DNA of 64,000 nucleotides from a virus (IMGVR_UViG_3300014205_000172:173172-237171); one strand, 5' to 3'. Shown: positions 898-63,410, numbered from the stretch's first letter. A program made the numbers and translations. The notes: a model not told the origin generated them from the letters alone.

Positions 898-1571
898 GTA
901 TCATCCACAAAGATAAACCTTATTGCGTGGTAGTGTTGACCCACCGCGCTACGGGTCTGTTTCATCTGGTGCTCACCACACTGACCCCGTCCGCGTATGA
1001 CGTGTCGTCCATGATTGCGTATATGAACGACTTCGCCAAGCGTACTCACCGCATCAACAACTACGCCCTGCGTGAGTTTCTCAACACCTATGCGCCTGTA
1101 AGTGCCGGTGACTTCGATCAGCGGTTTCTGTGCCATGACGTGACGCATGAGGTGGCCAAAGCAATAGCGATCACTACAGCGCACGCTATGGGCGCTGGTA
1201 AGCTGTTGACTGCTCACACGGTAAAGCCTGCGGCATGGGAGCTGAATCTCATGGCCAAGATGCGGATGCAGAAAGATCTTCCAAGTCCTTATACGAAGCC
1301 TGTAACGAACCAGCCCGTATATAGTCCAACGTTGACATCCGCTGAAACATCGCCCATCACCAAGGCTCAGTACGACTACATGTGCCAGCATGTCTGCAAC
1401 GGTATAAAGCCTCTGCAGTTGGATGAAGAACTCAAGCTTCATCAGAGCACCGTTGATACCTGTGATCCTCAGTTGCCGGCGTGGGCATGGGCGAAGAACC
1501 GTATTGATGAAATCCGCGAGTACGGTTCTTTGTACCTTGCGTATGTGACGTACGGTAAATATCTTTTTTAA
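894..1571 (+). CDS. hypothetical protein with a degenerate GIY-YIG-like N-terminal domain
   Basis: YCVVVLTHRATGLFHL...AKAIA...MGAGKLLTAHTV aligns by eye with the C-terminal half of 18064..18762. Confidence 0.55.
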   Translation: MSIIHKDKPYCVVVLTHRATGLFHLVLTTLTPSAYDVSSMIAYMNDFAKRTHRINNYALREFLNTYAPVSAGDFDQRFLCHDVTHEVAKAIAITTAHAMGAGKLLTAHTVKPAAWELNLMAKMRMQKDLPSPYTKPVTNQPVYSPTLTSAETSPITKAQYDYMCQHVCNGIKPLQLDEELKLHQSTVDTCDPQLPAWAWAKNRIDEIREYGSLYLAYVTYGKYLF

Positions 1572-1588
1572 TTAGGGGTAATTATTAG

Positions 1589-2107
1589 ATGAAATATCCT
1601 GATGGCGATCCAAATCTGGATTTGACTGATCTTCGTATCGACGACCCGTTGTTGACCGGCGTGGTGTTGGATTGGGCGCTTGCAAAAGCAACGGAAGGCT
1701 TACCGATCTTTAACATGCACGATGGTACCTATCCCGGCAATAATGCAAAGCTGATTTACTGCTCGGAACAGCGTGCCGTCATTGTCGATCTGGAATGGAA
1801 ACTCTGGCACGAGGGTCCTGACTCAAGGATTAATGGCCGCTGGGAACCTACCCGAAACTGGGCACAGCTTGGCCCGTATCTCAACAAATACAAAATCTCC
1901 ACAAGCTACGGGAGCGCTGCAGGGTCATTAAACATGGCCTCCATTAAGGGTCTTTCACCAACGAAAGGCTGTGAACGGATGGAGGACGCAATAGCTCTGA
2001 CAGTTGTTTATCACGCCTTCGGTAAAGAAATCCGCGTACCAACAAAACTTCTGGAGATCCAAAAGATGCTCACAGAAGACAATATAAAATACATCCTGAC
2101 ATCGTAA
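1589..2107 (+). CDS. NinX/DUF2591-like phage protein
   Basis: LTGVVLDWALAKA...WEPTRNWAQLGPYL matches the family pattern L.G..LDWAVA...P.T.W...GP.I. Confidence 0.65.
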   Translation: MKYPDGDPNLDLTDLRIDDPLLTGVVLDWALAKATEGLPIFNMHDGTYPGNNAKLIYCSEQRAVIVDLEWKLWHEGPDSRINGRWEPTRNWAQLGPYLNKYKISTSYGSAAGSLNMASIKGLSPTKGCERMEDAIALTVVYHAFGKEIRVPTKLLEIQKMLTEDNIKYILTS

Positions 2108-2118
2108 GGGGTTTAACC

Positions 2119-2856
2119 ATGCTCGAACAAATCTGCATTTATAAGTGGGAAGATCTGCTGGCTTGGATCACTTCGGTCGAACACAATTTCTGCAGCCAGG
2201 TCACCGGCAAGTTTACCACAACTGTGAAAGTCGGCGCCATGTGGCAGCACCATACCGTCGAACTGCAAGTCACCGATGATCTCCAGGCCGTCATGGACAA
2301 CATGACCAAGATCGTCACCAAAATAATGCATGCGAAGATGGTGATCGGCAGTTTGTTCATCTCACTACCGGAACAAGGCAAGGTCCTGGTAATCGCTAAC
2401 CCTGAACAGATGGCTGAAGAAGAAGCCCGCGTGAACAGCACGACGTTCCGTTTTGTTAAACACCTTCCTGCATATGTTGAGGCTGATTGCCAAAACGTTA
2501 CAGCCACCTCGAAAGAGGCTTTGCTTGACTTCGGTTTTGTTCGCCGTTTCTCCGAACGCCCTGGGTTCCACCAGTTTGCGGCCAGCGGGTTTGAAACAGA
2601 TCCGAAGACCGGTAAGTTATACATTACCCTGGTGGCTGAGCTTGATGAAGGCTACGAGTGGTTCGTGGTGGGTTACGTCTACGCTGACCTTGAAATGCTG
2701 ACCAGTCTTGATTTCCCGCTGTGGGTACCCAAGTACCGTGAAGCAGAAGCTCGTCAGAACGAAACCATGAACTACAAGCAACCTGTGCCATTGAGCGCTC
2801 TGATTGCTAGTGGTGTGGTCAGCGTTACCCAGGGTCCCAAAGTGGCGGACGATTAA
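2119..2856 (+). CDS. hypothetical protein
   Basis: 245 aa ORF, SD AAGGGG, abuts the next gene. Confidence 0.75.
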   Translation: MLEQICIYKWEDLLAWITSVEHNFCSQVTGKFTTTVKVGAMWQHHTVELQVTDDLQAVMDNMTKIVTKIMHAKMVIGSLFISLPEQGKVLVIANPEQMAEEEARVNSTTFRFVKHLPAYVEADCQNVTATSKEALLDFGFVRRFSERPGFHQFAASGFETDPKTGKLYITLVAELDEGYEWFVVGYVYADLEMLTSLDFPLWVPKYREAEARQNETMNYKQPVPLSALIASGVVSVTQGPKVADD

Positions 2857-3225
2857 ATGACTGAAGTTCTGATCAACGGCGTGCGGTTCGTACCGGCGCC
2901 GATTGTTTGCGAGAATCCAGAGCTGCTCGATTTCGAATGGGACTTCCGCGATGTAGGCAAGGCGCGCATCCGCGATTTCCTTTGTCAGCTTCTGCTGACT
3001 CTTTGGGAAAAGGGCGAAAGGTTCGACGGCAAATGGCCATGGGGTAATAGCGGCTGGCAGTGGGATTTCTACGAAGCCCTTGTTGCCGCTAAAGCTGTCG
3101 AGGGCGACATTGACGTCAACGCATTTGGCTGGGAAAAGGGCGATGGTAATCGCGAGAAGGCTTTCGATATCACGATGGGCCTGATCACCGCCATGTGTTC
3201 AACTCCTGCTGACGGTAAGTCCTAG
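2857..3225 (+). CDS. hypothetical protein, paralog of 3234..3560
   Basis: Shares ELLD.EW.F...IR..L..LL..LW.....FD.K.P.G.S.W....Y.AL..AKA..G. Confidence 0.8.
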   Translation: MTEVLINGVRFVPAPIVCENPELLDFEWDFRDVGKARIRDFLCQLLLTLWEKGERFDGKWPWGNSGWQWDFYEALVAAKAVEGDIDVNAFGWEKGDGNREKAFDITMGLITAMCSTPADGKS

Positions 3226-3233
3226 GGGTCGCT

Positions 3234-3560
3234 ATGGCAACTGAGCTAACTCACGACGAACTGCTTGATCTTGAATGGCAGTTCGAAAAAGGCGGTCCTA
3301 AATCGTCCATCCGCAATTACCTTCAAAGCTTGTTGATTCATCTTTGGCAAGCTAAGTCAAACTTTGACAGCAAACGCCCATTTGGTAAATCCTCTTGGGA
3401 GTTTCAACTGTACGCTGCACTGATTGGCGCGAAGGCGATCGCTGGGACTGTTGATAGCGACGGGCTTGTTGAAACGATATTTACTGAGGACTTAGCTAAG
3501 GCTGATGAGTTGATCGAACAGCTTATCATCACCATGTGTAAATCCTCTGGTAACCAATAG
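3234..3560 (+). CDS. hypothetical protein, paralog of 2857..3225
   Basis: Same motif string as the upstream gene. Confidence 0.8.
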   Translation: MATELTHDELLDLEWQFEKGGPKSSIRNYLQSLLIHLWQAKSNFDSKRPFGKSSWEFQLYAALIGAKAIAGTVDSDGLVETIFTEDLAKADELIEQLIITMCKSSGNQ

Positions 3561-3569
3561 GGGCTACTA

Positions 3570-14680: not shown

Positions 14681-14681
14681 C

Positions 14682-29662: not shown

Positions 29663-29690
29663 TTACAGTCATACATTGCAATAGAGCACA
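29663..29690 (+). promoter_or_regulatory. phage early-type promoter motif copy
   Basis: TTACAGTCA-TACAT-TGCAATAGA-GCACA. Confidence 0.65.
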
Positions 29691-29738
29691 CCCCCACTCA
29701 TTGCAATATTTATACCTGCCCTAAGGAGGGCCTGCTTC

Positions 29739-32702: not shown

Positions 32703-32715
32703 TTTAAAAAAGTTT

Positions 32716-32740
32716 GAGTAATACATGATGAAGACGAATA
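32716..32740 (+). promoter_or_regulatory. phage early-type promoter motif copy
   Basis: GAGTAA-TACAT-GATGAAGAC-GAATA. Confidence 0.55.
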
Positions 32741-32774
32741 CCAATACCCCCATCCTGTTCTTTGGAGAACTTAC

Positions 32775-33347: not shown

Positions 33348-33406
33348 TACCCTAGGGGCGTGGTTATGCCACGCCCTTTTACTTACACCGTTCAAAGGTG
33401 AACGAA

Positions 33407-42185: not shown

Positions 42186-42198
42186 GTTAATATTCGAT

Positions 42199-42235
42199 TT
42201 AACTTTTTTACAGTCATACATCACGCTGATGAATA
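42199..42235 (+). promoter_or_regulatory. phage early-type promoter; 27-bp exact repeat of 59117-59143
   Basis: TTAACTTTTTTACAGTCATACATCACG then CTGAT-GAATA. Confidence 0.75.
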
Positions 42236-42264
42236 AACATACCCCTACCTTAAAAGGATTTATC

Positions 42265-42639
42265 ATGTTTAGCAAAGACGTTCTGGCACTGGTTGGATTA
42301 AGTATGGCTGGTGTAATTATTGGCGGTCTGATTGGCCGCCATCTCGGAAAGACCATCGGTACGCTGCAAAAGGATATCAGCCTTCTCGACCGCCGTATCA
42401 TCGAGCTCGAAATCAAAGCTCTGGGCGGTGCGACAACTGAAACCGCTGAGCAGCGCGGGGCTTATGCCGATCTCGTTGTTCAACTGCTTGTCGATAAAGT
42501 TCGTCAGAGTCAAAAAGTACTGTCGGCTGGCGGTAATGAGAAAATCCATGTTCTGCGTAAGAAGTTTGTCGATAACGAAATTACTGCCGGCATACTTACA
42601 ACTGGTCTTCTGTACGATGTTTACAGAAATGCAAACTAA
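42265..42639 (+). CDS. membrane-anchored hypothetical protein
   Basis: N-terminal TM; SD AAGGA. Confidence 0.7.
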   Translation: MFSKDVLALVGLSMAGVIIGGLIGRHLGKTIGTLQKDISLLDRRIIELEIKALGGATTETAEQRGAYADLVVQLLVDKVRQSQKVLSAGGNEKIHVLRKKFVDNEITAGILTTGLLYDVYRNAN

Positions 42640-42675
42640 CACAATTATCTAACCCCGTTCTTTGGAGAACACACC

Positions 42676-47296: not shown

Positions 47297-47299
47297 GCG

Positions 47300-48397: not shown

Positions 48398-48409
48398 GAA
48401 GTGGGTCCC

Positions 48410-49042: not shown

Positions 49043-49053
49043 GCATTACCTCC

Positions 49054-50043
49054 TTAAATATCCGGTGTCAGTATGACGTCGGTCACATCAATTACAGCGT
49101 TCGTCCAAGGGTGCCCGCCTGGGGCGGTTGGAAATAAGCCGACTTGACCATTGTAATTGATAACGTTGTTGGCAGGTCCTGACACGACCGCCTCGGCCGA
49201 TTCATCGGTGCCGTTCTTAAGTTTCATACCGCAGTTTACAACGTTCGCGATAGTGGACGAAAGCGCTACAGTTAATTCAATTGCCGACGCTGTAACACCA
49301 GTGGGTAGGTCGGGACGTAACGATGCAACCAATGGAGTTTTGTTGACGTCTGAAATATCTTTAGTGCTGTCTAATAGATCGAGGCCATAAATTAAATCCA
49401 CCCCAGTCGTTGGCGACGTTGTCCAACCGGAAGCTGTCGCCGAATCAAATTGGATACGCTTGGCGATTTGAGCACCAAGGAATCCGGAAATACCGCCTTG
49501 GTCATCATTGATGTAAATATCCCGAAACGCTGAGTTGCTCGTGTTGCTCCCAGTTGTCATCTCAAGATATAGTATCCAGCGTCGGTCATTCGCCGATATC
49601 GCCACTGACGCCAAGGCTATTCCATTGTAGCGGCGGTCGACAATACCGGTGGCGATATCAATCGAGAATTCAAAATACCCAGTAGTCCCGGCTGGGATTG
49701 TGGTAAGACCGGTGACCGTACGCACCTCGGTGCTGGAAAGAATAGATGAGGTGACAGATGAGGTGAGAGATCCAATGACCAAACCAACTAGCGGCTTAGT
49801 TGTATTAGAAGCGACGTCAAACCGCACCCGGACGCCACACCAAATTTTCGCGACCGGCTCGGCCAAAAAGGGCACTAACGAGTACCCGATGCGCGATGTA
49901 GAAGTCCAAGATGTAGAACCAGCCCAACCGTCACTACTAATTTGCTGACCGCCATAAGCCAGCATTCCATGGTCTGCCAGCGGTGTCCAAGTACCGGATA
50001 ACTTCGGATAATGATCAAAGCCAATTACTGCTTTTACAGTCAT
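49054..50043 (-). CDS. putative tail fibre/receptor-binding protein, ConA-like beta-sandwich
   Basis: YFEFSIDIATGIVDRRYNG...FRDIYINDD...FLG. Confidence 0.6.
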   Translation of the reverse strand: MTVKAVIGFDHYPKLSGTWTPLADHGMLAYGGQQISSDGWAGSTSWTSTSRIGYSLVPFLAEPVAKIWCGVRVRFDVASNTTKPLVGLVIGSLTSSVTSSILSSTEVRTVTGLTTIPAGTTGYFEFSIDIATGIVDRRYNGIALASVAISANDRRWILYLEMTTGSNTSNSAFRDIYINDDQGGISGFLGAQIAKRIQFDSATASGWTTSPTTGVDLIYGLDLLDSTKDISDVNKTPLVASLRPDLPTGVTASAIELTVALSSTIANVVNCGMKLKNGTDESAEAVVSGPANNVINYNGQVGLFPTAPGGHPWTNAVIDVTDVILTPDI

Positions 50044-50060
50044 GATACAAACCCCATTAT

Positions 50061-51122
50061 TTAGATGACGGTATCTGGCGTTATTTTAAACGACAGCGTC
50101 GCGAGTTTAGGTACGTTCCAGCTGCTACCATCAAGAGCTCTTGAATAAACCCCTAGCGATAACCCGTATTTTAAACCGCCGGCTGGTGCGGATACTTGCA
50201 TTGCCGGTAAGTTAACGCCGCTACCGCTTATCTCTACTTTTGTAGGACTTGGTGAAATTGTGGCACTTGCTCCCGCCATGCTAAAAGCCATACCTAAAAT
50301 ACGTGCTCCAACGACAGCAGTTGGACTTAGTGTAATAGCCAGTGGGGTTTTATCGGTCGGTGAGTTGACCGTGATGGTGCTAGGTGGTGTCAAGTTCATG
50401 ACATCCACTAATGACGCAGATCCAGAACTAGGTACCCAACCGACACCTGTAGCGCTGGATACTGTAGTTGGATAAATACGGGCCTGTCCAATAGAACCAG
50501 TGATGCCATCGCCCGCAATGTCATCAATTACGTGCACATCTCGGATAGCAAAACGTGTAGTACCGCTGGACCCAATCCCACTGAGCACAAAGTTCAATAC
50601 CAGCTTACCCGCATCCCAGGCTGTAGCGCCAGCTGTCGACAAGGTAAACGTGCGAGTAGCAGCCTGAGCAACACCATTGACTATATAACTGGTAAGGCCT
50701 GTCGCACGGGTATATGTGACTTCAACAAACAGTTCAGTACCTACTGCCTGAGTTGCCAGCCAAGGGGCGGCTGTAGTGAACAGATAATCGGCACCAGCAT
50801 TCGGCGACCCTTCTTGCGCAAGACTCAGTACCTGATAGTTGCCGCCAATAACCGACAGTACTTTTAACTTGAAGCAAATGGTGATCCGCGCGGCTGCAGC
50901 AGGGACAAACCCATTAAGAAAGATGGGTACGTTGCTGATCACGTTTGCCGTTGTGGCCATGCCAGAAATCCAACCATTCTGGTCGATGCAGGCACGAGTT
51001 GGGTTTTGACCAAGTCCCGCGCCTGGAATGCCAGAACTCGTCCACCAGTCTGCAAAGGTTGCATTCACCGCTGGGTTCGTTACCTTTAATGCGTTATCAG
51101 TACCGAAGATTGCACGAAGCAT
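50061..51122 (-). CDS. putative tail fibre/receptor-binding protein, ConA-like beta-sandwich
   Basis: FVEVTYTRATGLTSYIVNG...IRDVHVIDD...SIG. Confidence 0.6.
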   Translation of the reverse strand: MLRAIFGTDNALKVTNPAVNATFADWWTSSGIPGAGLGQNPTRACIDQNGWISGMATTANVISNVPIFLNGFVPAAAARITICFKLKVLSVIGGNYQVLSLAQEGSPNAGADYLFTTAAPWLATQAVGTELFVEVTYTRATGLTSYIVNGVAQAATRTFTLSTAGATAWDAGKLVLNFVLSGIGSSGTTRFAIRDVHVIDDIAGDGITGSIGQARIYPTTVSSATGVGWVPSSGSASLVDVMNLTPPSTITVNSPTDKTPLAITLSPTAVVGARILGMAFSMAGASATISPSPTKVEISGSGVNLPAMQVSAPAGGLKYGLSLGVYSRALDGSSWNVPKLATLSFKITPDTVI

Positions 51123-51127
51123 GTTCG

Positions 51128-51538
51128 TTACTCCCCTGCGGCAACTGGTGTCGGTGCCGGTTCGTCCAGTGGTGGTTCCTCAGTGCTCGCTACAGGTGCT
51201 TTAGCGGCAGGTTCGTACCAGCACATGTAAATGGTCCCAACTGGCGCTGTGGAAGCAGCTGGGAACTTCAGACCGAGGGCGTATTTGAAGAAGCTGAAGG
51301 TGGGTAGCGAGTTCTTATTCAGACCGTTGAACACCACTTCCACACCATTGAGAGAGTACTCTGTTCCGTACTCTTCCATGTTCCATTTGTCTTTGTCCGC
51401 CCGATCGGCGCCTTCTGACAGTAATGCGGCGATGAGCCGTTGATCGCTCTCATTGAGCAACCCAAGCGGAACGGCAGACAGCTGATTCCCGCGCGCTGTG
51501 AAATCTTGACGGATCAGGTAATTAGGCCAATTCGACAT
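51128..51538 (-). CDS. virion structural protein (C-domain only)
   Basis: LNGVEVVFNGLN..LPT..FKYAL...GTIY aligns with the C-terminus of 53030..53908. Confidence 0.7.
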   Translation of the reverse strand: MSNWPNYLIRQDFTARGNQLSAVPLGLLNESDQRLIAALLSEGADRADKDKWNMEEYGTEYSLNGVEVVFNGLNKNSLPTFSFFKYALGLKFPAASTAPVGTIYMCWYEPAAKAPVASTEEPPLDEPAPTPVAAGE

Positions 51539-51556
51539 GTTGAAAACCCTCTGGCA

Positions 51557-52051
51557 TTAGAAGCCAATTAACTGATTAGTGTTGAACGCTGTAGAGATGT
51601 CCGGAGCAGCTGGGAACTTCAGACTGGCAGTGCCAATCCAACCTAAGCTAGTCGGAGTAGCTTCAAGCACCGCTACCACTTTTCCGTTCACGGTGGTAGA
51701 CGCGTGCTCAACTAAGCTTGCAGCCGTAATAGGTACGTTAATGTACCCTATTACTAGAGGGAGCCATTGGGCGACTGTCAAGTTCTCTGAAATGCTGCAA
51801 CTGGTCAGATCAAAGTTCTCCAACCCACTAAGCTCCAAACGGTCGTAAAAGACTGTCGTGAAACCAATCGCGATCGTTGAAGAGTCAGCCACTTTAAAGT
51901 CAACCGCGGTATTTTTACCGTACGTGGTTAACTCAGCGCTGGTTGGCGTTCTTGGTTTAGCAAACGTCAGCTCTGTGGAAGAAAAAGAAACCCCGCCGGC
52001 AACGTTCACCATAGCCGTCAGGTCTACCGCGCTTGTTACGAAAATGCTCAT
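51557..52051 (-). CDS. virion structural protein (N-domain only)
   Basis: KNT...YDRLEL...SLGWIG...LIGF; start reassigned to MSIFV. Confidence 0.7.
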   Translation of the reverse strand: MSIFVTSAVDLTAMVNVAGGVSFSSTELTFAKPRTPTSAELTTYGKNTAVDFKVADSSTIAIGFTTVFYDRLELSGLENFDLTSCSISENLTVAQWLPLVIGYINVPITAASLVEHASTTVNGKVVAVLEATPTSLGWIGTASLKFPAAPDISTAFNTNQLIGF

Positions 52052-52059
52052 AACCGACC

Positions 52060-52980
52060 CTACACGTTGTAGTGGATGATGATATTGCCGGCAAACCAAG
52101 CGGTCGTATAACTTGGAATAACAATACAGCGGTTATACTTAGCCGAGTTGGCATCTGGTACTGCGATATTCGGCAATGAGTAGCGGAACCAGTTCATGCC
52201 TGCAATGCCACCAACTACCGAACCTGCAACGTTTTTATTCCAATCGGTTCTGACCGTATTTGCCAGCAAGAAGTTTACAACGGCGGTAAGTTGCGTGTCC
52301 GTATAACTGCTGCTTGCATTGACGATGGTTTCAAGCACCGCCGAGATCGCCGAAGCATCCTGACAGTAAGTCATGAACTCACCTTGAGGTTTTCGACCCT
52401 CTGTAGTGAAGTCATTACCGCCTGGATAGAGCCTACCGACTAACGCCCTGTTCGCATCGGTAATGATGTCACCGATTAGACGTTTACCTTTAGTCCAATT
52501 CAGTGTAAAATTACCTTTATAGCACAGCGACGTAGCTTTGATCCCGATTACGGTATTGCCTGAGGCCAACATGCCGGAGACCGGCGTGTCGCTAAAATCG
52601 GTATCGGGAATCGCAATACCGTATTTTGTTCTGAAGCTGTTTCGCCAAACTGCATCAACCAGGCCGGTCGTTGATGAATAATCATCAAGTTTAACAACCA
52701 TGCTTTTGAACATGGCGGCCATGTTAATACGGCGGTATCGAACAGTTTGGTTACCGATCTTACCAGCGCCAGCTGCTGAAAAGATCGTCACAGAGGTATC
52801 TGTTTTATACACATCCTCTTCCACAACGGTTACTGTCGACGGCGCGCTGAACTGAAGTGTGCCTTTTGGGAACTGCTGCGTGAACCCAGGATTGCTGTAT
52901 TCGATCAGCGCATAGAGCAGATCAGTGCTCGATGATTTGTAATCTGTTGGTACCGGCAGACCTATGTTAGACATGCCCAT
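52060..52980 (-). CDS. virion structural/tail fibre-associated protein
   Basis: YRRIN...SLCYKG...RLYPGGNDFTT...ANSAKYNR...HYNV; close paralog of 53920. Confidence 0.75.
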   Translation of the reverse strand: MGMSNIGLPVPTDYKSSSTDLLYALIEYSNPGFTQQFPKGTLQFSAPSTVTVVEEDVYKTDTSVTIFSAAGAGKIGNQTVRYRRINMAAMFKSMVVKLDDYSSTTGLVDAVWRNSFRTKYGIAIPDTDFSDTPVSGMLASGNTVIGIKATSLCYKGNFTLNWTKGKRLIGDIITDANRALVGRLYPGGNDFTTEGRKPQGEFMTYCQDASAISAVLETIVNASSSYTDTQLTAVVNFLLANTVRTDWNKNVAGSVVGGIAGMNWFRYSLPNIAVPDANSAKYNRCIVIPSYTTAWFAGNIIIHYNV

Positions 52981-53029
52981 CTCCTGAAGTAATCGACGAG
53001 CGCCGCATTGGCGCTCGTCTATGCCCTAA

Positions 53030-53908
53030 TTATACCGCGTCAGGATTGAACGGGTCGTTATAGTGCAGGTACAACAGACCAGCTGGCGTTGTGACGGTAG
53101 CGTCAAGCTGCAACACGAGCACGTACTTGTACGCTGGGTTAGTTGGCAACGACGTCGAGTTCAGACCGTTGCTGACAACTGTTGCGCCAAACACGTTCCA
53201 GGTGGCGACGCCGGAGGTATTGACCCACAAAGTTTTACCCGAACCCAGGTCGACCGCATTGAACGCCGAAACGAAGGCATCCGCTTTCTCCGTTGCAAGC
53301 ACACCGGTGGTGAGGGTTGCGATATCGGAGAAGTATGGAGTAAAGTCGTAAGGGTACATGTACAGAGGACCGTATACATCGGTATCGCTAGCAGTTGGAT
53401 AGTTCAGACCGTTCAACGAAGTAACCGTGATTACCTGATCGATAGCCGCACCGCCAACTTTGACGCTCAGTGTGGATTGGCCAATCCAACCCAAACTGCC
53501 CGCCTTAGCTTTCAATGTAGCGGTCAGAGTTTGATCGCCATTGTCTACCAGAGCGAGATCTTCCAGATCGTCATCACCAAACATAATGCCTGTCCAGTTA
53601 AGCAACGCCGGATACAGGCCATGAACCGATGTAACGTCATATGCGGAGCATTGCAATCCCGGAATATTTACCGGTGTGAGCGCCGCCAAATCCAATCGGT
53701 CATACGTCAGAGTCTGGACGCCTTGATATAAACTACCAGGAGCCGCAGTGAGCTTAATCGCAGTGTTGTGTGTGGTTACCTGACCATGCCAAGTACCAGA
53801 CACTGGCTGAGGAGTGCCGTAAAGAAAATCACTCGCTACGTAAGTTGTTGAGTTTGCTGCGTTCAAAGCCGCCAGGAATTCACTGAGCGGCTGATTCATA
53901 TACGACAT
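53030..53908 (-). CDS. virion structural/tail fibre-associated protein
   Basis: HNT...YDRLDL...SLGWIG...LNGLNYP...LYLHYN. Confidence 0.75.
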   Translation of the reverse strand: MSYMNQPLSEFLAALNAANSTTYVASDFLYGTPQPVSGTWHGQVTTHNTAIKLTAAPGSLYQGVQTLTYDRLDLAALTPVNIPGLQCSAYDVTSVHGLYPALLNWTGIMFGDDDLEDLALVDNGDQTLTATLKAKAGSLGWIGQSTLSVKVGGAAIDQVITVTSLNGLNYPTASDTDVYGPLYMYPYDFTPYFSDIATLTTGVLATEKADAFVSAFNAVDLGSGKTLWVNTSGVATWNVFGATVVSNGLNSTSLPTNPAYKYVLVLQLDATVTTPAGLLYLHYNDPFNPDAV

Positions 53909-53919
53909 TGGGTCTACCC

Positions 53920-54840
53920 TCAGACGTTAAAGTGAATATAGTTGCGGCCATTACCGTACGTAGCCACCAAAGCCTCTGGAGTATCCCAGGTCAACAAGCG
54001 GTTGTAGTACTTAGAGTTAGCCTCTGGGTACTTAGCCGATGGCAACACGACAACTTCCGCCCCGGTGAACATTGCGGAGGTCCAGGAAGCTTGTGTCGGG
54101 AACGAGGTTCCAAATGCAGTATTGCATTGGTTAAACACAGCATTCAGGAACGCCGTGGTAGCAGTACCTTGGATCATGACAGCTGGATAGCTCGTATACG
54201 GAGTGGTGCTCAGCAATGCAGTCCAGTCAGTCGAGTACATCAAGTTGTTCATGACAGGGCGACGGCCAGCGGTGGTGAAGTCATTGCCACCTGGGAACAG
54301 GCGCGCGTTGAGATCAGTCACGGTGATCATGGAGGCCAGATCCTGAGGCGCACTTTTCCATTTCAACTGAATCGTGCCGATGTATCCAAGGCTGGTGACC
54401 TTGGCGGTCACACTGACGGTGGTCGTGTAGAATCCATCTTCTTGGGTATTACCCCGCAAAATATTGACGTCAGTCACATCAGCTTCTGTCAGGTTCAGGC
54501 CGTACTGAGCATTGATCACCGGCAATAGCTGATACAATGAAAAAACGATACTGAACGAGTTACTCTGGGTCGGAGAGTACCGATTGATCTGGAGTACCTG
54601 CCCACGGAACAGTACTGCCAGATCAAGCCGGCGGTAGTTCAGCATCTTACGCCCAATGTAGTCCCCACCGATCGAAACGCAGTTGATCGACGTATTCATT
54701 GCGGCATTGCCGGAGACCGTCGCTGCCTTTACATCAGACAGCGCCATATTCAACGGCGTCAGTGGAACAGGCAGCAGCGGGTTGGCCTGATTGATGAGGT
54801 CATAAACCAGCTCGCTCGATGGCTTGTTATATAAAGGCAT
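53920..54840 (-). CDS. virion structural/tail fibre-associated protein
   Basis: YRRLDL...INAQYGLNLT...RLFPGGNDFTT...HFNV. Confidence 0.75.
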   Translation of the reverse strand: MPLYNKPSSELVYDLINQANPLLPVPLTPLNMALSDVKAATVSGNAAMNTSINCVSIGGDYIGRKMLNYRRLDLAVLFRGQVLQINRYSPTQSNSFSIVFSLYQLLPVINAQYGLNLTEADVTDVNILRGNTQEDGFYTTTVSVTAKVTSLGYIGTIQLKWKSAPQDLASMITVTDLNARLFPGGNDFTTAGRRPVMNNLMYSTDWTALLSTTPYTSYPAVMIQGTATTAFLNAVFNQCNTAFGTSFPTQASWTSAMFTGAEVVVLPSAKYPEANSKYYNRLLTWDTPEALVATYGNGRNYIHFNV

Positions 54841-54845
54841 CTTGA

Positions 54846-55643
54846 TTAAACCTCGTCAAGCAAATTGTAGTGAAAATACAGAGGCCCAAAGATGTAGGCG
54901 CTGTTAACTGCTGGCTGAATAGTGACCCGATCAAACGCTGGGTTGCTATCAGGGACGTCAGCAGTAGCAGAATCGATCAGTTGCCCTTTGGTCCATGCTG
55001 GGATCTGCAAATAAATGCAAGCCGATTGAAAAGTTGCCCAATCGGTATACGACCGCGTCAGCGGATTGATTTTTAACGAATCGCGAAGACTGGTAAAGTC
55101 AATACCCCAAGTTACCATCCGCCCCGACTGCTTATTAAACGCAGGATCGTTAGGGTGGTTAAACAACTTGAGTAGGCGAATGCCGATCACTGACTCAAGT
55201 AGGGTTCTGCCGTACATGAGCTGAATCTGAACCTGACCCACAAACCCAAAGCTCTCAGCCTTAGGGATGAGTGTCAACAATGCCGTTTCGTTCAGGGTCG
55301 GAGCTGGCGGTGTGAACGGTTCAAGATCATCAAGCGTGATAAACAGACCCAGCTGAGTGTTCACCATGTCGATCACCATTTGTGTGGTGAATGGCACGAT
55401 GTTTCTTAACTGCAGACCGGCTAATGCGTCAGTGAGGCTGATCCGCTTATACAGAAGTGTCTGACTACCTGTATAGACACGCCCAGGCACGCCCTCGATG
55501 GTAACCTGAGTGTTGTGCTTTTCATTTCCTTCAAGGACCTGAGGGACCTGAGGGGTAATGTTGATTAGGGTGAGTGGGCGTTTTGGAGAGTTCTTCTCGT
55601 TGGCCTCATTAAGAAGCCTTGTAATACTGTTGTCCATCAGCAA
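54846..55643 (-). CDS. virion structural/tail fibre-associated protein
   Basis: HNT...YKRISL...LYFHYN. Confidence 0.75.
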   Translation of the reverse strand: MLMDNSITRLLNEANEKNSPKRPLTLINITPQVPQVLEGNEKHNTQVTIEGVPGRVYTGSQTLLYKRISLTDALAGLQLRNIVPFTTQMVIDMVNTQLGLFITLDDLEPFTPPAPTLNETALLTLIPKAESFGFVGQVQIQLMYGRTLLESVIGIRLLKLFNHPNDPAFNKQSGRMVTWGIDFTSLRDSLKINPLTRSYTDWATFQSACIYLQIPAWTKGQLIDSATADVPDSNPAFDRVTIQPAVNSAYIFGPLYFHYNLLDEV

Positions 55644-55649
55644 GGCTCC

Positions 55650-56480
55650 TTAATCAACAGCAGGCGGGTTATAGTGCAGGTACAGCGACCCACTCAAGCC
55701 TACCGAGTTAGTTTCATTGAGCTGCACAATGATCACTTTCCCGTAATCGGTGTTGACGTCAGTGCGGCCAGTGGTGACCCCTGCGTAAGTAACGGTTGCC
55801 CCCATTACGCTATAGCGCCCGGCAGCGGTCGACGACCAGACGTTTTTAGTGACTGCTGTCAGCACATCACGTACCACGTCGATCTGATCAGTGCCGACCA
55901 ACACAGTTTCCAACGCTACGTCAGAGGCGGAGAAATTCTGCCAGTATGAGTAGGCGGCCGCGTACGGTTTGTCAATCGAAGGCGCTGGGTAGTTCAAGCC
56001 AGGCAGCGACGTTACCGTTAGGAACGCCTCCAGTGGCCGCTGACCTTGCGCAACAGTGATATCCACACTACCAATCCAATAACGACTGGTCGCCTTTGCT
56101 GTAAGCGTTACAGCACCAACGCCGTCAACTAAGCCGGTTGGACCGTCGGTGAAATCATCGGCTGTAAAGTTCAAGCCGTACAGCTTATTCAGACGATTGG
56201 CTACGTCCATGATCGTGGTGAGATTGTAGCCTTTGATGGACGTATCGATCAACGTACCCAAGTCGGCCAGATCAAGACGCTTATACAGGATCGGCACAGA
56301 ACCATCGTAGGTACTTTGGACATCCTTGGCGGTGATCGTCATGCTGGTGTTTTCACCAGACGTACCAGTCGGAATAACTACAGGATCACCGTACAAGTAT
56401 TCTGCTTCAACCAGGGTCACATTGTTTTGTGTCTTGATTGCCTTGAGTATTGCCTCAAGTGGCATTTCGTACAAAGCCAT
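55650..56480 (-). CDS. virion structural/tail fibre-associated protein
   Basis: YKRLDL...LNKLYGLNFT...LPGLNYP...LYLHYN. Confidence 0.75.
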   Translation of the reverse strand: MALYEMPLEAILKAIKTQNNVTLVEAEYLYGDPVVIPTGTSGENTSMTITAKDVQSTYDGSVPILYKRLDLADLGTLIDTSIKGYNLTTIMDVANRLNKLYGLNFTADDFTDGPTGLVDGVGAVTLTAKATSRYWIGSVDITVAQGQRPLEAFLTVTSLPGLNYPAPSIDKPYAAAYSYWQNFSASDVALETVLVGTDQIDVVRDVLTAVTKNVWSSTAAGRYSVMGATVTYAGVTTGRTDVNTDYGKVIIVQLNETNSVGLSGSLYLHYNPPAVD

Positions 56481-56491
56481 AAATGAAGCCT

Positions 56492-57298
56492 CTACGCCCG
56501 GTTGAAGTGGAAGTACGCATCGCCATTGAACTCAGGCGTCACGACATTCTTTTGAATGATGACGTGGCTGTACGCAGTGTTAGCGCCAGGAACGTCGGTA
56601 GTAGCATGTAATGTGACGCCAATACCTGTGCCAAATACGTTGACCGGATAATCGGCGAATCCGTTCTGAGCCATTATTGCTTTGACTTCCTGCGGGAACC
56701 ACCAGCCGTCACCATAGAGCTTCAACTTTGATTGATCTTCTGTAAAGTCAAATCCCCATGTTGCCATGGACATGGATTTCTTGTTACTAACGATTGGGTC
56801 CGGAAATGCCAATATTGGCAACGTACGGTTCACTACGGCTGAAGTGATATCCGGCCGCAGACGAATAAATTGAACGACCATCCGTCCTTCGTACGCCAGG
56901 GAATATGGCTGAATAACGAACTGAAGGTTGGCCTGCTCATTACCCCCCAGCCAAACAATAGACTGGTCGACGATGTCGTTGGGCTCTAACGACAGACCTG
57001 TCGCCTTGTTGATCACTGGCAACAGTCTAGTTAAACTGGTTTGACCAATAGCCTCAACCACAGGTCGGATCTCTTTAAAGATAATCGAGAGATTCAGGCG
57101 CTTATAGTTGAGTACCGCGTACCCTTCGTAGTCCTCGTTGTTAAACTGAGTGACTACGGGGAGTCGCGTACCACCCCCTGCTACTGATTTCGGAATACCG
57201 TAATACAGATCGCCAGGCTCCAATGGCACGGGTAAAACGTTGTTTGCATTGATAAGTTCCACCAATGCCTGTTCAGATGTTCCTTGTAGAAGGAGCAT
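56492..57298 (-). CDS. virion structural/tail fibre-associated protein
   Basis: YKRLNL...SLAYEG...YFHFN; start MLLLQG after AGGAG. Confidence 0.75.
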   Translation of the reverse strand: MLLLQGTSEQALVELINANNVLPVPLEPGDLYYGIPKSVAGGGTRLPVVTQFNNEDYEGYAVLNYKRLNLSIIFKEIRPVVEAIGQTSLTRLLPVINKATGLSLEPNDIVDQSIVWLGGNEQANLQFVIQPYSLAYEGRMVVQFIRLRPDITSAVVNRTLPILAFPDPIVSNKKSMSMATWGFDFTEDQSKLKLYGDGWWFPQEVKAIMAQNGFADYPVNVFGTGIGVTLHATTDVPGANTAYSHVIIQKNVVTPEFNGDAYFHFNRA

Positions 57299-57334
57299 GA
57301 CGTATCTCCTGACTAAATCATAACCGACATAGGT

Positions 57335-57376
57335 GTGTAGACGAGGATGAGGCAAACACCCCATCCTCGTCTACAC
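57335..57376 (-). terminator. intergenic hairpin
   Basis: 15-bp stem GTGTAGACGAGGATG/CATCCTCGTCTACAC. Confidence 0.7.
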
Positions 57377-57393
57377 GGGGTAACTACCGATAC

Positions 57394-57942
57394 TTACGGA
57401 GTAACAGGCGGAGCGGCGTAGGTCAGGCCGTCCATTTCGGCAACAGGGATTGCAGTGGCCAGATCGACGTCGTCAGCTTTGAGCGTCAGCGTGATGCTGC
57501 CGGTGTAGACGAGGGAGTCGGCCTTTACAACAATCTGCACTGGGTGGGTTTCGTTCACTGTGCCGGCGAAGGTCGGCAGGTCACCATCGGTGAAGTCGTC
57601 GCCAGTCAGGGCGATGTTCAGGCGAGCATTCAGCTCTGGGATCAGGTCAGCGATCTTGGTAGCGTCGCCGATGCTAAATACCAGGTCACGGCCAGTCGCG
57701 GAGGCAACAAACGCAGCGCCGACGTCAGTGCCCAGATGCAGACGGTTATAGCGAATGATGCGCGTGTTTTTGTAACCAGAACCGGCAGCGGCGACGAGGG
57801 ACAGGCTGGTATTTTGACCAGTAGGCTCAACTTCTGGCAGGCCTGCCCAGGTGAAAGTTGCCAGAGTGAAACCTGCGCCAGACTTGGCATTGACCATATC
57901 CAGAATAATCTGTTTTGGCGCTTTGGTTAAATCGTTAGCCAT
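57394..57942 (-). CDS. virion structural protein (N-domain only)
   Basis: YNRLHL...LIPELNARLNI.LT...SLVYTG...MDGLTYA; biased codons. Confidence 0.75.
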   Translation of the reverse strand: MANDLTKAPKQIILDMVNAKSGAGFTLATFTWAGLPEVEPTGQNTSLSLVAAAGSGYKNTRIIRYNRLHLGTDVGAAFVASATGRDLVFSIGDATKIADLIPELNARLNIALTGDDFTDGDLPTFAGTVNETHPVQIVVKADSLVYTGSITLTLKADDVDLATAIPVAEMDGLTYAAPPVTP

Positions 57943-58021
57943 GAAAAGAACTCCAAGGGTGTAGTGGGACTATGGTCGAATACTGACACATAGAATTGAA
58001 GACTATTTGCGCGATTGTCGA

Positions 58022-58555
58022 CTACACCTGAGGGGGTGCGTACGTCAAACCATCCATATGCACATCCGGAATAGCAAAATAAAGATCGTTACTATCGCGG
58101 ATCAATTTTACAAGCAATGTGTCCTTATAGACCAACGATGCAGGTAACACTTGAATCAAGACATCCACCCCACCTTCATCATCCTGGATCTCGGGGAGGT
58201 TAAAGTCAATGATGCGATCAGCCGTCAACTTTATCTGTAACCGCTCATTTAACTCTGGGAGTAGGTCGCTGATAAATTGCTTGCCGAACGGATCAAACGT
58301 TAAATCGGTAACGCCAGGTTCTACAAACTTACTCAGAGGTACCCGGTTGTAGTAAAACGTTTGGCTACCGTGGTACTGGTAGCCGGGTCTTGCAGTTGCT
58401 ACGATCATGGTGTTACGGTTAATGTCCACAGTCGGTGTAAAGACCTGGGGGTTACCGAAACTTACCATTAAAGGATATAAACTTTTATTGCTGTTGTCGC
58501 GGCGGATCAGATCGATCAGTACATCAATCTCATCGCGAGTATAATCAGTAGCCAT
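58022..58555 (-). CDS. virion structural protein (N-domain only)
   Basis: YYNRVPL...LLPELNERLQI.LT...SLVY...MDGLTYA. Confidence 0.75.
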   Translation of the reverse strand: MATDYTRDEIDVLIDLIRRDNSNKSLYPLMVSFGNPQVFTPTVDINRNTMIVATARPGYQYHGSQTFYYNRVPLSKFVEPGVTDLTFDPFGKQFISDLLPELNERLQIKLTADRIIDFNLPEIQDDEGGVDVLIQVLPASLVYKDTLLVKLIRDSNDLYFAIPDVHMDGLTYAPPQV

Positions 58556-58580
58556 GACTTACGATCTCGTGAGGTGGGGA

Positions 58581-59069
58581 TCAATCCAATCCGTTAAGGA
58601 CATTATTAGGGAACGCTACTGACAACTCCTCTATCGTTATTTCAGCGATGGAGACAACCAGCTCACCTGTCCAGATTAAAGAATTACCAACCACCTTAAT
58701 AGTAAAGAGGTCATCTTTAAATGTAAGGGATTCTATTTCACTGGCGTGGATCACAAAGTTGTATTTGTTCTTCAGTGCTATCAACAAGCCTGCGCCGTTC
58801 CATGACTCCACCTGGACACTAGGCAGTGTAACGCCAATATCTGCAAATGCTTGTTGCATGTCCAAACGGGTATAATAGTAGACGTAACTACCTTCAACAA
58901 ACTGAGTGTCGGCTGTGACGCCAACCATGGTGTTAGTGCCGCCTTCGAAATCCCCAGCCGTAGGGTCAGTGAACGTTAAGTCTTTTGCGGTCAACGTTAC
59001 ATTGAATTCGTCCAGGTAGCTCTGGTTTGTCGACACGATTAAATCGGTCAACATTTGCTTGTTGGTCAT
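58581..59069 (-). CDS. virion structural protein (N-domain only)
   Basis: YYTRLDM...SLIWTG...LNGL; start MTNKQ. Confidence 0.7.
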   Translation of the reverse strand: MTNKQMLTDLIVSTNQSYLDEFNVTLTAKDLTFTDPTAGDFEGGTNTMVGVTADTQFVEGSYVYYYTRLDMQQAFADIGVTLPSVQVESWNGAGLLIALKNKYNFVIHASEIESLTFKDDLFTIKVVGNSLIWTGELVVSIAEITIEELSVAFPNNVLNGLD

Positions 59070-59116
59070 CGGGTTGTACCTGGGGAAGTTATCGAGTACA
59101 TAAAAGAGCAGCATAC

Positions 59117-59153
59117 TTAACTTTTTTACAGTCATACATCACGTACTTGAACA
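59117..59153 (+). promoter_or_regulatory. phage early-type promoter; 27-bp exact repeat of 42199-42225
   Basis: TTAACTTTTTTACAGTCATACATCACG then TACTT-GAACA. Confidence 0.75.
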
Positions 59154-59183
59154 AACTCACCTTATCCTTAGGAGGATTAGCAG

Positions 59184-59989: not shown

Positions 59990-60022
59990 CCCCCGTAACG
60001 CCAACGTCCTTTGGAGGACCCG

Positions 60023-60370: not shown

Positions 60371-60396
60371 ATTAACTGTCCTAAGGGGGACTTATA

Positions 60397-61348: not shown

Positions 61349-61352
61349 CAGA

Positions 61353-61396
61353 CATATGGCCAGGGCACAACGCCCTGGCTATATGCTTTCTTTTTA
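61353..61396 (+). terminator. intrinsic terminator
   Basis: CATATGGCCAGGGC...GCCCTGGCTATATG-CTTTCTTTTT, same family as 5399 and 45457. Confidence 0.8.
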
Positions 61397-61416
61397 TATT
61401 CCTAGGGGAATCTAGC

Positions 61417-61929
61417 ATGGATTACGTAACTAAACTGGTTGGTGGTTCTAAGTTGATTAAATGCCCAACTTCGCCAGATAAAAAGTTTATCGATTTTGCA
61501 CGCAGTCTGAAAGCGCATCGGCATTATCTTATCCTTGAAGATAAGAACGATGGGACGTTCTCGTTTACTAACGTCATGGCACATAAGCTCGATAGTCATC
61601 TGAAGCGCATCAATAACGGGAAAACCAATAAACCCGTGATGAAGCGATATCCTACCGCTGAAGCCTTCCACCGGAATATTACAGTCTGGCTTGAAATTGA
61701 GTGTAGTGAGATCAATATTGAACACTTCACTCTCGGCAAGTGGATGGATAACAAAGCACAGATTGCGCGGGCTAAGCGCCTTTCAAGGCTTTTGATGACA
61801 GGCGGTCGTATTGCAGACCGGCGTGAGTTCTGGAAAGAGCACTACACCGATGCATGTAAATACATCAATACCGTTGTCGATGCTGCGTGGAGTATCCCAC
61901 TTCCGTCTGCTCTGAGCACTCCTGTTTAA
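61417..61929 (+). CDS. hypothetical protein, paralog of 62870..63391
   Basis: Shares VTK...K.P...E.K.DG...P.A..FH.NI.VW..IE...TLGKW.D. Confidence 0.8.
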   Translation: MDYVTKLVGGSKLIKCPTSPDKKFIDFARSLKAHRHYLILEDKNDGTFSFTNVMAHKLDSHLKRINNGKTNKPVMKRYPTAEAFHRNITVWLEIECSEINIEHFTLGKWMDNKAQIARAKRLSRLLMTGGRIADRREFWKEHYTDACKYINTVVDAAWSIPLPSALSTPV

Positions 61930-61948
61930 TTGTCCTAAGGAGGACTAC

Positions 61949-62692
61949 ATGAACGTATTTGACAAAGCTCTTAAATCGTTTAACAAACGGGCCGTGCTGC
62001 AGAAAGCCGCTTTAGGCAAAGCGGAAGGTAGTTGGGTAAATGCCGAAGGGCAAAACGTACTGCCTCCTGTAATGTGGGACTTCGTATCGGGTCCGGGCAT
62101 TGCACTCTCTTCAAACCCAGAATTACCTGAAGACCATTTCAAGCTCGGCTCTGGGATCGGCCGTTTCTTTTCAGGTATTAACGCAGAACCAAGTCCACAC
62201 TATCCTGGTGTTCATCTCAATCCCATCCATGCCTTGCGTGAACGTCCAGAACTCTACACGGGCGATAATGGCGGCCGTGCAGGCCGTTCGTTGCTGACAC
62301 CCAAATATAAAGCCATTGCTGACCGTATAAATGGCGGTGTAATCTCGGAGTGTTCGGTGGATAGCAGCGATGTTGGCTCGCTAACATACAGCGCTGGTCA
62401 TCAGCCAATTGATCGTGATACTTATCGCGTACCGAACTATGACAACTTCATCATCCGACCCGCGCTGAAGCTGTCGTACGTAGAAGCCTTTAAACTGCTT
62501 CGTCTTCAGATTATCGCCCGATTGAACAAAAATTGTCAGCATTATCTGGCTAGATCGATCAGAACGAGTGCCCCTAACTTACACCCACAGATTACGAGAA
62601 AAATGGTTGGTCGAATCATCCAAGACTTACTTGTTGAAGACGCCGACCATCTCGCACCCTACTTTGCCGAAAAATTCGGCGCAGCGTTCTAA
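61949..62692 (+). CDS. hypothetical protein, N-terminus paralogous to 63411
   Basis: MNVFDKALKSFN. Confidence 0.75.
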   Translation: MNVFDKALKSFNKRAVLQKAALGKAEGSWVNAEGQNVLPPVMWDFVSGPGIALSSNPELPEDHFKLGSGIGRFFSGINAEPSPHYPGVHLNPIHALRERPELYTGDNGGRAGRSLLTPKYKAIADRINGGVISECSVDSSDVGSLTYSAGHQPIDRDTYRVPNYDNFIIRPALKLSYVEAFKLLRLQIIARLNKNCQHYLARSIRTSAPNLHPQITRKMVGRIIQDLLVEDADHLAPYFAEKFGAAF

Positions 62693-62702
62693 GGAGAACA
62701 TA

Positions 62703-62846
62703 ATGGCAGTCAAAAAACGCTACAAGAGAAAGAAGTCTGATAGCAATACAGATATCACGATTCCTTGGGATGTTGCCATTTTGGTTTCTAAGCTTCATAA
62801 CGATAGCGCAAGGGTCAGACAAACCCGCGCCAAAAAAGATAACTAA
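62703..62846 (+). CDS. small basic protein
   Basis: AAGGAG hairpin SD; MAVKKRYKRKK. Confidence 0.55.
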   Translation: MAVKKRYKRKKSDSNTDITIPWDVAILVSKLHNDSARVRQTRAKKDN

Positions 62847-62869
62847 CTTTATTCCTAGGGGAATTGATA

Positions 62870-63391
62870 ATGGAACATGTTACTAAAACTTTGTACGGAT
62901 ATACTTTGCTGAAAGTGCCCGAAGGTGAATTCAGTGAAGCGTTTTACGAATATCTATTAAAAGAACATTACGAGCTCCGGTGCCGCGTTAACTTTCTTAT
63001 TGAGCATAAGAAAGATGGCCGTGTTGCATTTAGCAGCGCAATTGAAAGCACCGTACGTAACATGCTGCAACGTTTCAGCCGTGGTCAGACTGTGAAGTGT
63101 GTCCAGACACTGTTTCCAACGGCAAGGCGGTTTCACAATAACATCAATGTTTGGGCGGTAATTGAAGAACCGGCGCGCAATGTCTTAACGCTGGAGATCC
63201 TCACGCTGGGTAAGTGGTTTGATAAAACCGCCGAGAAGCACAAATGTAAACGTCTAGCCGAAAGACACGTTCGGGCCGTGCCGCATAGTTACCATGCAGT
63301 AACTCGGTTCCTCAAAGACGCTGCCAAGATTCGTCCAGATCTGATTGAATTTATCAACCAGCATTCAGGTAAATGGCAAGTTCAAATTTAA
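62870..63391 (+). CDS. hypothetical protein, paralog of 61417..61929
   Basis: Same motifs and the identical leader ATTCCTAGGGGAAT. Confidence 0.8.
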   Translation: MEHVTKTLYGYTLLKVPEGEFSEAFYEYLLKEHYELRCRVNFLIEHKKDGRVAFSSAIESTVRNMLQRFSRGQTVKCVQTLFPTARRFHNNINVWAVIEEPARNVLTLEILTLGKWFDKTAEKHKCKRLAERHVRAVPHSYHAVTRFLKDAAKIRPDLIEFINQHSGKWQVQI

Positions 63392-63410
63392 CCGTTCTAA
63401 GGAGAACATA

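Follow-up and report, generated by a model that had tools for sequence, protein, structure and literature searches.

Structured ribosome-binding sites are usually treated as one-off regulators, and the locus described here raises the question of whether a single structured format can serve many genes at once and, if so, what reads it. The stretch of DNA analyzed (IMGVR_UViG_3300014205_000172:173172-237171; 64,000 nucleotides, hereafter the window) is the terminal 64 kb of a 237,171-bp virus record from an uncultured phage, with a G+C content of 49.6%. Along it, the Shine-Dalgarno (SD) sequences of a series of genes are folded into small hairpins with tetraloops ending in GG, which an earlier reading of the sequence (the original prediction) had taken for 13 members of a translational regulon switched by a phage RNA-binding protein, a host Rsm-type protein or a trans-acting RNA. 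We favor, with roughly even confidence, a different reader, namely the ribosome itself, for which the hairpin would be a cis-acting module that presents the SD.

A recurrent hairpin at ribosome-binding sites

All 13 listed sequences are present where they had been placed; 12 form convincing hairpins (stem of 5-6 bp; 4-nt loop with GG as its last two bases; ATG 3-7 nt downstream), and one, at 1569, is weak. The 5-nt 5′ arm, typically GUCCU or GUUCU, constitutes an intramolecular anti-SD that pairs with the 3′ half of the SD (AGGAC, AGAAC and variants), such that the first two G of the SD occupy tetraloop positions 3 and 4, and the ATG follows 3-7 nt further on. The stem comprises 5 bp, occasionally 6 and never more, and in 11 of the 12 robust window sites it is fully Watson-Crick, with one U.G pair in the remaining site, at 60378.

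The complete 237,171-bp record was scanned for a 5-bp Watson-Crick stem enclosing a 4-nt loop that ends in GG, with a start codon within 12 nt. This strict scan yielded 16 sites with a plausible open reading frame (ORF), each with an ATG 2-7 nt downstream; allowing one G.U pair added two sites (60378 and one other), for a total of 18, all on the plus strand. Genes were called with a simple codon-usage model, from which the start sites also come, and 13 of the 266 called genes carry the strict pattern. When the 20 nt 5′ of the loop were shuffled with the SD and spacer left intact (1000 runs), the mean count was 0.43 and the maximum 3, and when the 5′ arms were permuted among genes in the same register (2000 runs), the mean was 0.63 and the maximum 4. 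The observed count is a ~20-fold excess over these nulls (Poisson p about 2e-13), and the comparison with an SD-preserving shuffle, which the original prediction had named as a check, is therefore in its favor, with 13 observed against 0.43-0.63 expected. When loop length and offset were varied, enrichment was confined to 4-nt loops whose end lies 3-7 nt from the start; the counts for 3-, 5-, 7- and 8-nt loops matched expectation, and a small excess of 6-nt loops consisted of 6-bp versions of the same stems. Because only this register is enriched, an unpaired first GG is specifically favored, rather than masking of the SD in general.

The proteins encoded behind the hairpins fall into at least 15 unrelated families, which rules out gene duplication as the origin of the copies. 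Ten of them were only ORFans in Pfam and PHROG searches, and no Rfam family reached its gathering threshold anywhere in the window.

Conservation and covariation

For three window segments, megablast and blastn searches of a phage collection gave no nucleotide-level match, and relatives were reached via protein identity instead. They comprise an 86.7-kb IMG/VR contig (G001) and seven public metagenomic loci, namely, six Logan contigs (L002, L003, L005, L011, L013 and L014) and one JGI contig (L012). Leaders were assigned to groups on the basis of homologous downstream proteins, irrespective of the hairpin. Among the hairpin-bearing gene families, 43 of 48 members from seven contigs retain the hairpin, and retention extends to L011, in which the orthologue of the 145-aa protein encoded behind the 59164 hairpin has 46% amino-acid identity; four families with starts that overlap the upstream gene have it in 0/25 members. 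Pairwise identity of the leaders is 94% in the 5′ arm, 93% in the 3′ arm and 100% in the loop GG, compared with 75% at loop positions 1-2 (AA, TA, TT, CT or TC among orthologues), 45% in the spacer and 36% in the 14-nt flank. The 5′ arm is thus highly conserved though it takes no part in 16S rRNA pairing.

Eight stems are represented among the 15 distinct hairpin sequences; of the five pairs, four change on both sides and two show a change from U-A to U.G. The rows were picked for pairing, and this count shows sequence variation rather than providing an unbiased test. Compensation is seen, for example, in the 145-aa family, where A-U is replaced by G-C, and in the paralogous leaders at 61932 and 63394, which have C-G and U-A, respectively. 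Because G.U pairs occur on the sense strand, the strand bias is strict and the half-sites remain complementary despite their variation, selection can be placed at the RNA level, and the comparison of leaders shows it to act on pairing rather than on sequence, which upholds the earlier claim of selection on structure. The same evidence bears on the view that the elements are DNA-level protein operators or hairpin promoters, or chance palindromes. They are indeed inverted repeats in DNA, but the half-sites remain complementary while varying at 4/5 positions, the U.G pairs are found on the sense strand only, all copies lie on the coding strand at a fixed distance from the ATG, and chance is opposed by the ~20-fold excess over the nulls; we regard this view as extremely unlikely.

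Predicted presentation of the Shine-Dalgarno sequence

All RNA structure and accessibility values given here are thermodynamic predictions. The predicted folding free energy (ΔG) of the stems ranges from -2.2 to -7.0 kcal/mol, and the hairpin fold is predicted in context with a probability of at least 0.74 at 12/18 sites. In RNA thermometers of the ROSE/fourU type, the SD is held in a heat-labile stem that mismatches or G.U pairs weaken; the stems found here are short, weak and mostly perfect Watson-Crick. The duplex between the SD and the anti-SD is stronger for hairpin-led genes than for other genes (median -9.75 vs -6.55 kcal/mol, p = 8e-4), so that, once the cost of the hairpin is subtracted, the net strength lies near the genome norm.

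When 154-nt contexts are folded in silico, the GG of the loop has a median probability of 0.87 of being unpaired, which falls to 0.19 when the 5′ arm is replaced by random bases of local composition (16/17 sites, p = 8e-5); the corresponding value for the SD GG of other genes is 0.14. As modeled, the stems are weak and the first GG is shown in the loop, and "sequestered" is too strong a term for such an SD. Immediately before the stem lies a tail of about 18 nt that is C/A/U-rich and poor in G (median 1 G; 9% G over the 18 nt 5′ of the stem vs 19% at the equivalent position of other genes, p = 4e-5). The predicted layout, in which the SD sits in a local hairpin next to a G-poor single-stranded tail, is that of a standby-type structured ribosome-binding site, and unstructured CA- or AU-rich tails of 16-18 nt override hairpins at ribosome-binding sites via standby (PMC5934652).

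Placement in early-promoter operons

A bipartite motif, consisting of an A/T-rich cgatttaa-like box followed by TACAGT-N-A-Y-ACAT-Y-AC, is present 44-75 nt 5′ of ~17 first genes and on the plus strand only. Within the window, it was matched at 29664..29676 (core TACAGTCATACAT, after the A/T-rich box), 32714..32726 (variant core TTGAGTAATACAT), 42209..42221 and 59127..59139 (both with core TACAGTCATACAT), the last of these heading the 59.2-64 kb operon with eight hairpins; ~13 further motif sites are found elsewhere in the genome. The match at 42209 falls inside the called ORF 42145-42639, and that gene therefore probably starts at 42265. Conserved AT-rich early promoters centered near -10 have been reported for every RNA-polymerase-encoding jumbo phage, and the motif described here resembles them (PMC7598289); the leader lengths that it implies match the phiKZ 5′ untranslated regions of 31-40 nt (PMC8244752).

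Most copies had been assigned to operons of this motif, with none noticed in the late structural array, and both statements stand: all 12 robust window sites lie behind the motif, at most 4.3 kb downstream of it, and the minus-strand structural arrays contain no strict copy. This placement shows the hairpin-led genes to be restricted to early-type operons, with the early timing itself taken from the promoter motif. The hairpin is not a universal early mark because only ~5/17 promoter-proximal early genes carry it in strict form. Its density is 8/11 genes in the 59.2-64 kb operon, where the other three have little or no leader, two of them overlapping the upstream stop and one starting 11 nt past it.

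A rival reading is translational coupling, in which the ribosome ending an upstream gene would melt the stem and free the next SD. At 60006, 60378, 61932, 62686, 62851 and 63394, the upstream gene indeed stops within the loop or 0-16 nt ahead of the stem. By contrast, the hairpins at 29718, 32757, 33389, 59164 and 61398 are promoter- or terminator-proximal, with no translated ORF reaching the stem, the genes with overlapping stop and start carry the hairpin in 0/25 cases, and the stems are too weak for a strong block of initiation. Coupling is, in our judgment, very unlikely to account for the elements.

An array of ~16 consecutive genes on the minus strand (46742-59135), mostly DUF7941 paralogues, has a conserved order in all relatives; no strict Watson-Crick SD hairpin was found in it. 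The minus-strand gene starting at 53908 has a variant with one G.U pair (GTCTG-AGGG-TAGAC), which is shared with the relative L012.

Search for a trans-acting reader

The proposal that the sites are read by a trans-acting factor gained no support, and there is no evidence for a switch operated by CsrA, a phage protein or an antisense RNA. Pfam searches of the whole genome gave no match for homologues of CsrA, RegB (PF10715, E <= 1) or RegA, and a search for a separate antisense anti-SD-like locus matched only the reverse strands of the sites themselves. The GGA is not invariant, with 5/18 genome sites reading GGG or GGU, and its A is paired and outside the loop. There is one site per G-poor leader, and a second GGA hairpin was not found in the upstream 18 nt.

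These observations weigh most heavily on the possibility that the elements are host CsrA/RsmA binding sites by which early phage mRNAs are repressed, timed or used to titrate the protein. In CsrA/RsmA targets, GGA is invariant and wholly within the loop, and there are usually two or more sites per leader. The elements resemble such targets in being short hairpins that overlap the SD with GG(A) at the loop, AAGGA-type sites fit the A-N-GGA core, and a factor conserved across many hosts would fit the wide distribution described below. They lack, however, all three of the defining features, since the GGA varies, its A is base-paired outside the loop and each leader holds a single site; in addition, loops with TT or TA have no upstream A. 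We therefore attach little probability to this reading.

A phage-encoded factor is a less improbable reader, though still an unlikely one. Under this reading, the phage would encode a repressor that binds RNA, or an endoribonuclease, with the hairpin as its operator, and some of the early mRNAs would be shut off jointly in the manner of T4 RegB/RegA. RegB of T4 cuts GG/AG in early SDs and is most active where GGA is free of pairing and the G after it is constrained, and the layout found here, with GG in the loop and AG opening the stem, approximates that of the best RegB substrates (PMC3014915). A RegB-type GGAG is present at 12/17 sites and most 3′ arms conform to AG-R-A-Y in the consensus for RegB/S1 sites, with the A-rich tail RAYARAA only partly matched; the uniform geometry and the limitation of the copies to early operons would also suit an operator. 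Against it stand the lack of a RegB or RegA homologue in the genome, the free variation of loop positions 1-2, the presence of the hairpin on a minority of early genes, and the sharing of the format by phages with unrelated proteomes, each of which would consequently need a factor of its own.

Distribution in other phages

Judged by its gene content, the window phage is a giant, phiKZ-like phage. Its SNF2/DEAD helicase has 35-42% identity to jumbo-phage helicases, the long minus-strand array of DUF7941 paralogues lies in the window, and close relatives carry a PhiKZ-type major capsid gene just past the position that matches the window end. The cut end of the record lies in or close to the capsid region: in relatives, the early operon is followed by a divergent DnaB-like gene and the gene for the PhiKZ-type capsid, and a PF25620 search of the 237,171-bp record found no intact capsid gene.

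With the same pipeline, no enrichment was detected in phiKZ, Klebsiella phage Eowyn or Pseudomonas phage Noxifer, for which the 4-nt-loop counts were 6, 3 and 4 vs 4.9, 3.3 and 3.8 expected, and the hairpin as a general solution for nucleus-forming phages is thereby ruled out. The core pattern has 0-2 copies each in phiKZ, Eowyn, Noxifer, FLC9 and pPa_SNUABM_DT01; this genome has 6 in the forward and 0 in the reverse orientation.

Further carriers were sought by scanning IMG/VR for one stem variant and then rescoring for any stem. G002 (complete, 231.7 kb) has 10 copies vs 2.5 expected, and G003 (238.8 kb) has 16 4-nt-loop hairpins vs 2.9 expected, of which 14 have NNGG loops, with 11 different stems. 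Both encode a PhiKZ-type capsid protein, and the proteins that they share with the window phage at the scanned loci have 23-35% identity. G004, a complete 97-kb genome without a PhiKZ-type capsid protein, carries its seven to eight copies within a single 8-kb helicase operon, and L145, a related 9.8-kb IMG/VR contig, has 12 copies before consecutive genes. These carriers rule out a hairpin private to this clade and, within the genomes compared, show the format to be recurrent, operon-specific and not tied to one phage family.

The G004 operon lies at 27.1-34.9 kb on the minus strand, and hairpins are found nowhere else in that 97-kb genome. In G004 and L145, which belong to a phage group outside the phiKZ-like phages, the hairpins read GACCT/TACCT-GAGG-AGGTC/AGGTA and precede nearly every gene of the helicase-containing operon. 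In G002 (loci L191-L202; 90.9-93.8 kb and 159.8-164.9 kb), each SD hairpin is directly 3′ of a conserved tAtnCCCCAn box, the two forming a ~24-nt module; in the window, C-runs occur at variable distances 5′ of several hairpins.

Individual sites and exchange of leader modules

The sites in the window are all on the plus strand. At 29718..29731, GCCCT-AAGG-AGGGC (ΔG -7.0 kcal/mol, pair probability 0.97) precedes the ATG at 29739 of a 94-aa ORFan, the first gene behind the promoter motif at 29664; this hairpin is identical in G001. GTTCT-TTGG-AGAAC occurs both at 32757..32770 (ΔG -2.2 kcal/mol), before the ATG at 32775 of a 190-aa gene that is first behind the motif at 32714, and at 42657..42670, before the ATG at 42676 of a 113-aa gene in the operon of the motif at 42209; homologous leader modules of the latter in L002, L003 and L005 read GTCCT...AGGAC, a compensatory change. 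Between the two, the 6-bp hairpin CGTTCA-AAGG-TGAACG (33389..33404; ATG 33407, 90 aa) immediately follows a terminator-like GC-rich hairpin with a T-run (33355..33376, plus strand), and G001 retains its 5-bp core despite a replaced upstream flank.

The 59.2-64 kb operon opens with ATCCT-TAGG-AGGAT (59164..59177; ATG 59184, 145 aa; first gene behind the motif at 59127), which is retained in six relatives and reads GTCCT...AGGAC in an L011 paralogue. Next, GTCCT-TTGG-AGGAC (60006..60019; ATG 60023, 115 aa) is retained in 5/5 family members with wholly different flanks, and GTCCT-AAGG-GGGAC (60378..60391; ATG 60397, 201 aa; ΔG -5.0 kcal/mol), the hairpin with one U.G pair, belongs to a family with a hairpin in 7/7 members and loops AAGG, TAGG, TTGG or TGG. 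ATTCC-TAGG-GGAAT is found at 61398..61411 (ATG 61417, 170 aa), directly 3′ of another terminator-like GC-rich hairpin and T-run (61359..61379, plus strand), and again at 62851..62864 (ATG 62870), before a 173-aa paralogue of the 61417 gene. At 61932..61945, GTCCT-AAGG-AGGAC (ATG 61949, 247 aa; ΔG -4.9 kcal/mol) has the upstream stop 2 nt 5′ of its stem. GTTCT-AAGG-AGAAC is likewise present twice, at 62686..62699 (ATG 62703, 47 aa), where the TAA stop of the upstream gene spans the closing pair and the loop, and at 63394..63407, before the ATG at 63411 of a gene that continues past the window end.

The doubtful copy, TAATTA-GGGG-TAATTA (1569..1584; ATG 1589), has an AU-only stem with a ΔG of 0.0 and a pair probability of 0.08, and the orthologous leader in G001 keeps the SD without the stem. 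As about one such match is expected by chance, this site is probably a chance match.

A two-gene unit is duplicated in tandem in the segments 61398-62705 and 62851-64000 (170/173-aa and 247/196+-aa paralogues), and identical 21-nt modules holding the hairpin and the ribosome-binding site (62685-62705 and 63393-63413) bound an inserted segment that contains a 47-aa, very basic ORF (62703-62846) and the 173-aa gene and is absent from L002, L003 and L005. The combination of terminator, T-run and ATTCC-TAGG-GGAAT leader found at 61398 precedes different genes at L003:9981, L005:9981 and L013:12035; with one leader upstream of different genes among relatives, leader modules have evidently been exchanged between genes. 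Such exchange, together with the identical modules flanking the cassette, might indicate that the element is a short homology for cassette shuffling, as with T4-type PeSLs, or a hairpin that stabilizes or processes mRNA, with any effect on translation incidental. Yet the arms covary, whereas homology for recombination needs no complementarity, and the element always holds the SD at a fixed distance from the ATG, so that we consider this explanation highly improbable.

Outside the window, at G000 59603 and about 151428, are 4-bp stems with loops of 5-6 nt (GCTC-CAGGA-GAGC and ATCC-GTAGGA-GGAT), variants whose sequences suggest that the family has degenerate members missed by the strict scan.

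Discussion

We interpret the hairpins, with the even confidence given at the outset, as cis-acting "presented SD" modules read by the ribosome, and infer three contributions to their action: standby docking, toehold opening and insulation. The 30S subunit would dock on the unstructured tail, after which the 3′ end of 16S rRNA would nucleate on the displayed GG and displace the weak 5′ arm. That arm would also shield the purine-rich SD from stronger, uncontrolled pairing with the pyrimidine-rich leader and bring a very strong SD down to a normal net strength, and early genes that phages often swap would thereby acquire a start signal that is portable and independent of context. In addition, the hairpin may double as a shared handle through which early genes are shut off. 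The ribosome, or another universal reader, is favored because unrelated phages share the format and because loop positions 1-2 vary freely.

Several points weigh against reading by the ribosome. The accessibility values rest on thermodynamic prediction in 154-nt windows, and the early timing comes from the promoter motif. The hairpin is not needed for early translation in general, given that only ~5/17 promoter-proximal genes have it, and phiKZ, Eowyn and Noxifer do without it. Simple tuning would be available from a weaker SD, and the uniform geometry could equally fit recognition by a factor or the spread of one module by recombination.

A more general proposal, which we hold to be possible rather than probable, is that the hairpin is a convergent "presented Shine-Dalgarno" device of phage early and replication operons. 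Here, the 16S tail would enter via the GG and displace the anti-SD, the arm might later release the ribosome from the strong SD, and mRNAs that fold before meeting ribosomes would gain privileged, context-independent initiation; or else the hairpin would be the recognition mark of a conserved factor that switches the gene class off together.

Whichever reader applies, about 17 early genes of this phage form a class served by a single hairpin format that is stereotyped and covarying. Distant phiKZ-like phages and an unrelated 97-kb phage have the format as well, whereas phiKZ is not enriched in it. If read by the ribosome, the format would be a compact, portable start module of ~40 nt, with predictions for initiation kinetics and synthetic biology; if read by a factor, it would point to a new early shut-off system in nucleus-forming phages. 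In either case, it could serve as a sequence-only marker for early-gene operons in uncultured phage genomes.

Comparison with known systems

In full-text literature searches, mainly on SD hairpins in phages, no class of covarying SD tetraloop hairpins was found described for jumbo or other phages. In T4, hairpins mask the SD of genes e, soc and 25 on early read-through transcripts, and a late promoter inside the hairpin frees the SD. The T4-type PeSL cassettes of Arbiol et al. 2010 are reportedly stem-loops at the borders of swappable early genes, without an SD. The elements described here share with these systems hairpins at ribosome-binding sites that are tied to a temporal class and repeated modules that border swappable early genes; unlike in the T4 SD-masking hairpins, no late promoter was seen inside the hairpin.

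The ribosome-binding site of the MS2 coat gene (de Smit and van Duin's standby model; Sterk et al. 2018) similarly consists of a local hairpin after a single-stranded C/A- or A/U-rich tail, but the MS2 hairpin is one stable stem of about -11 kcal/mol that encloses the start codon (PMC5934652), whereas the present elements make up a multi-gene class of far weaker hairpins, in which just the 3′ half of the SD is enclosed and the ATG stays free. The T4 RegB/S1 sites are comparable in that GGAG in the SD marks an early mRNA class; they are, however, set by an A-rich 3′ context rather than by a covarying stem, and structure generally protects from RegB (PMC3014915).

Among described elements, the nearest is a 13-nt SD-containing element of unassigned function in cluster K mycobacteriophages, the start-associated sequence (SAS; Pope et al. 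2011, PMC3203893). Both SAS and the elements described here are 13-14 nt long and contain the SD; they share a single orientation, a distance of 3-7 nt to the start codon and a preference for ATG, and they are conserved upstream of unrelated families within a subset of non-structural genes (PMC3203893). The conserved 13-nt SAS sequence does not occur in the present elements, which differ from it in consensus and arms. SAS is one conserved sequence (GGG...CCC around ATAGGAG) with a stem of at most 3 bp and a 7-nt loop, for which selection on pairing is not shown (PMC3203893), whereas in the elements described here, which belong to different hosts and phage families, the sequence varies while the 5-bp stem and the NNGG tetraloop are kept.

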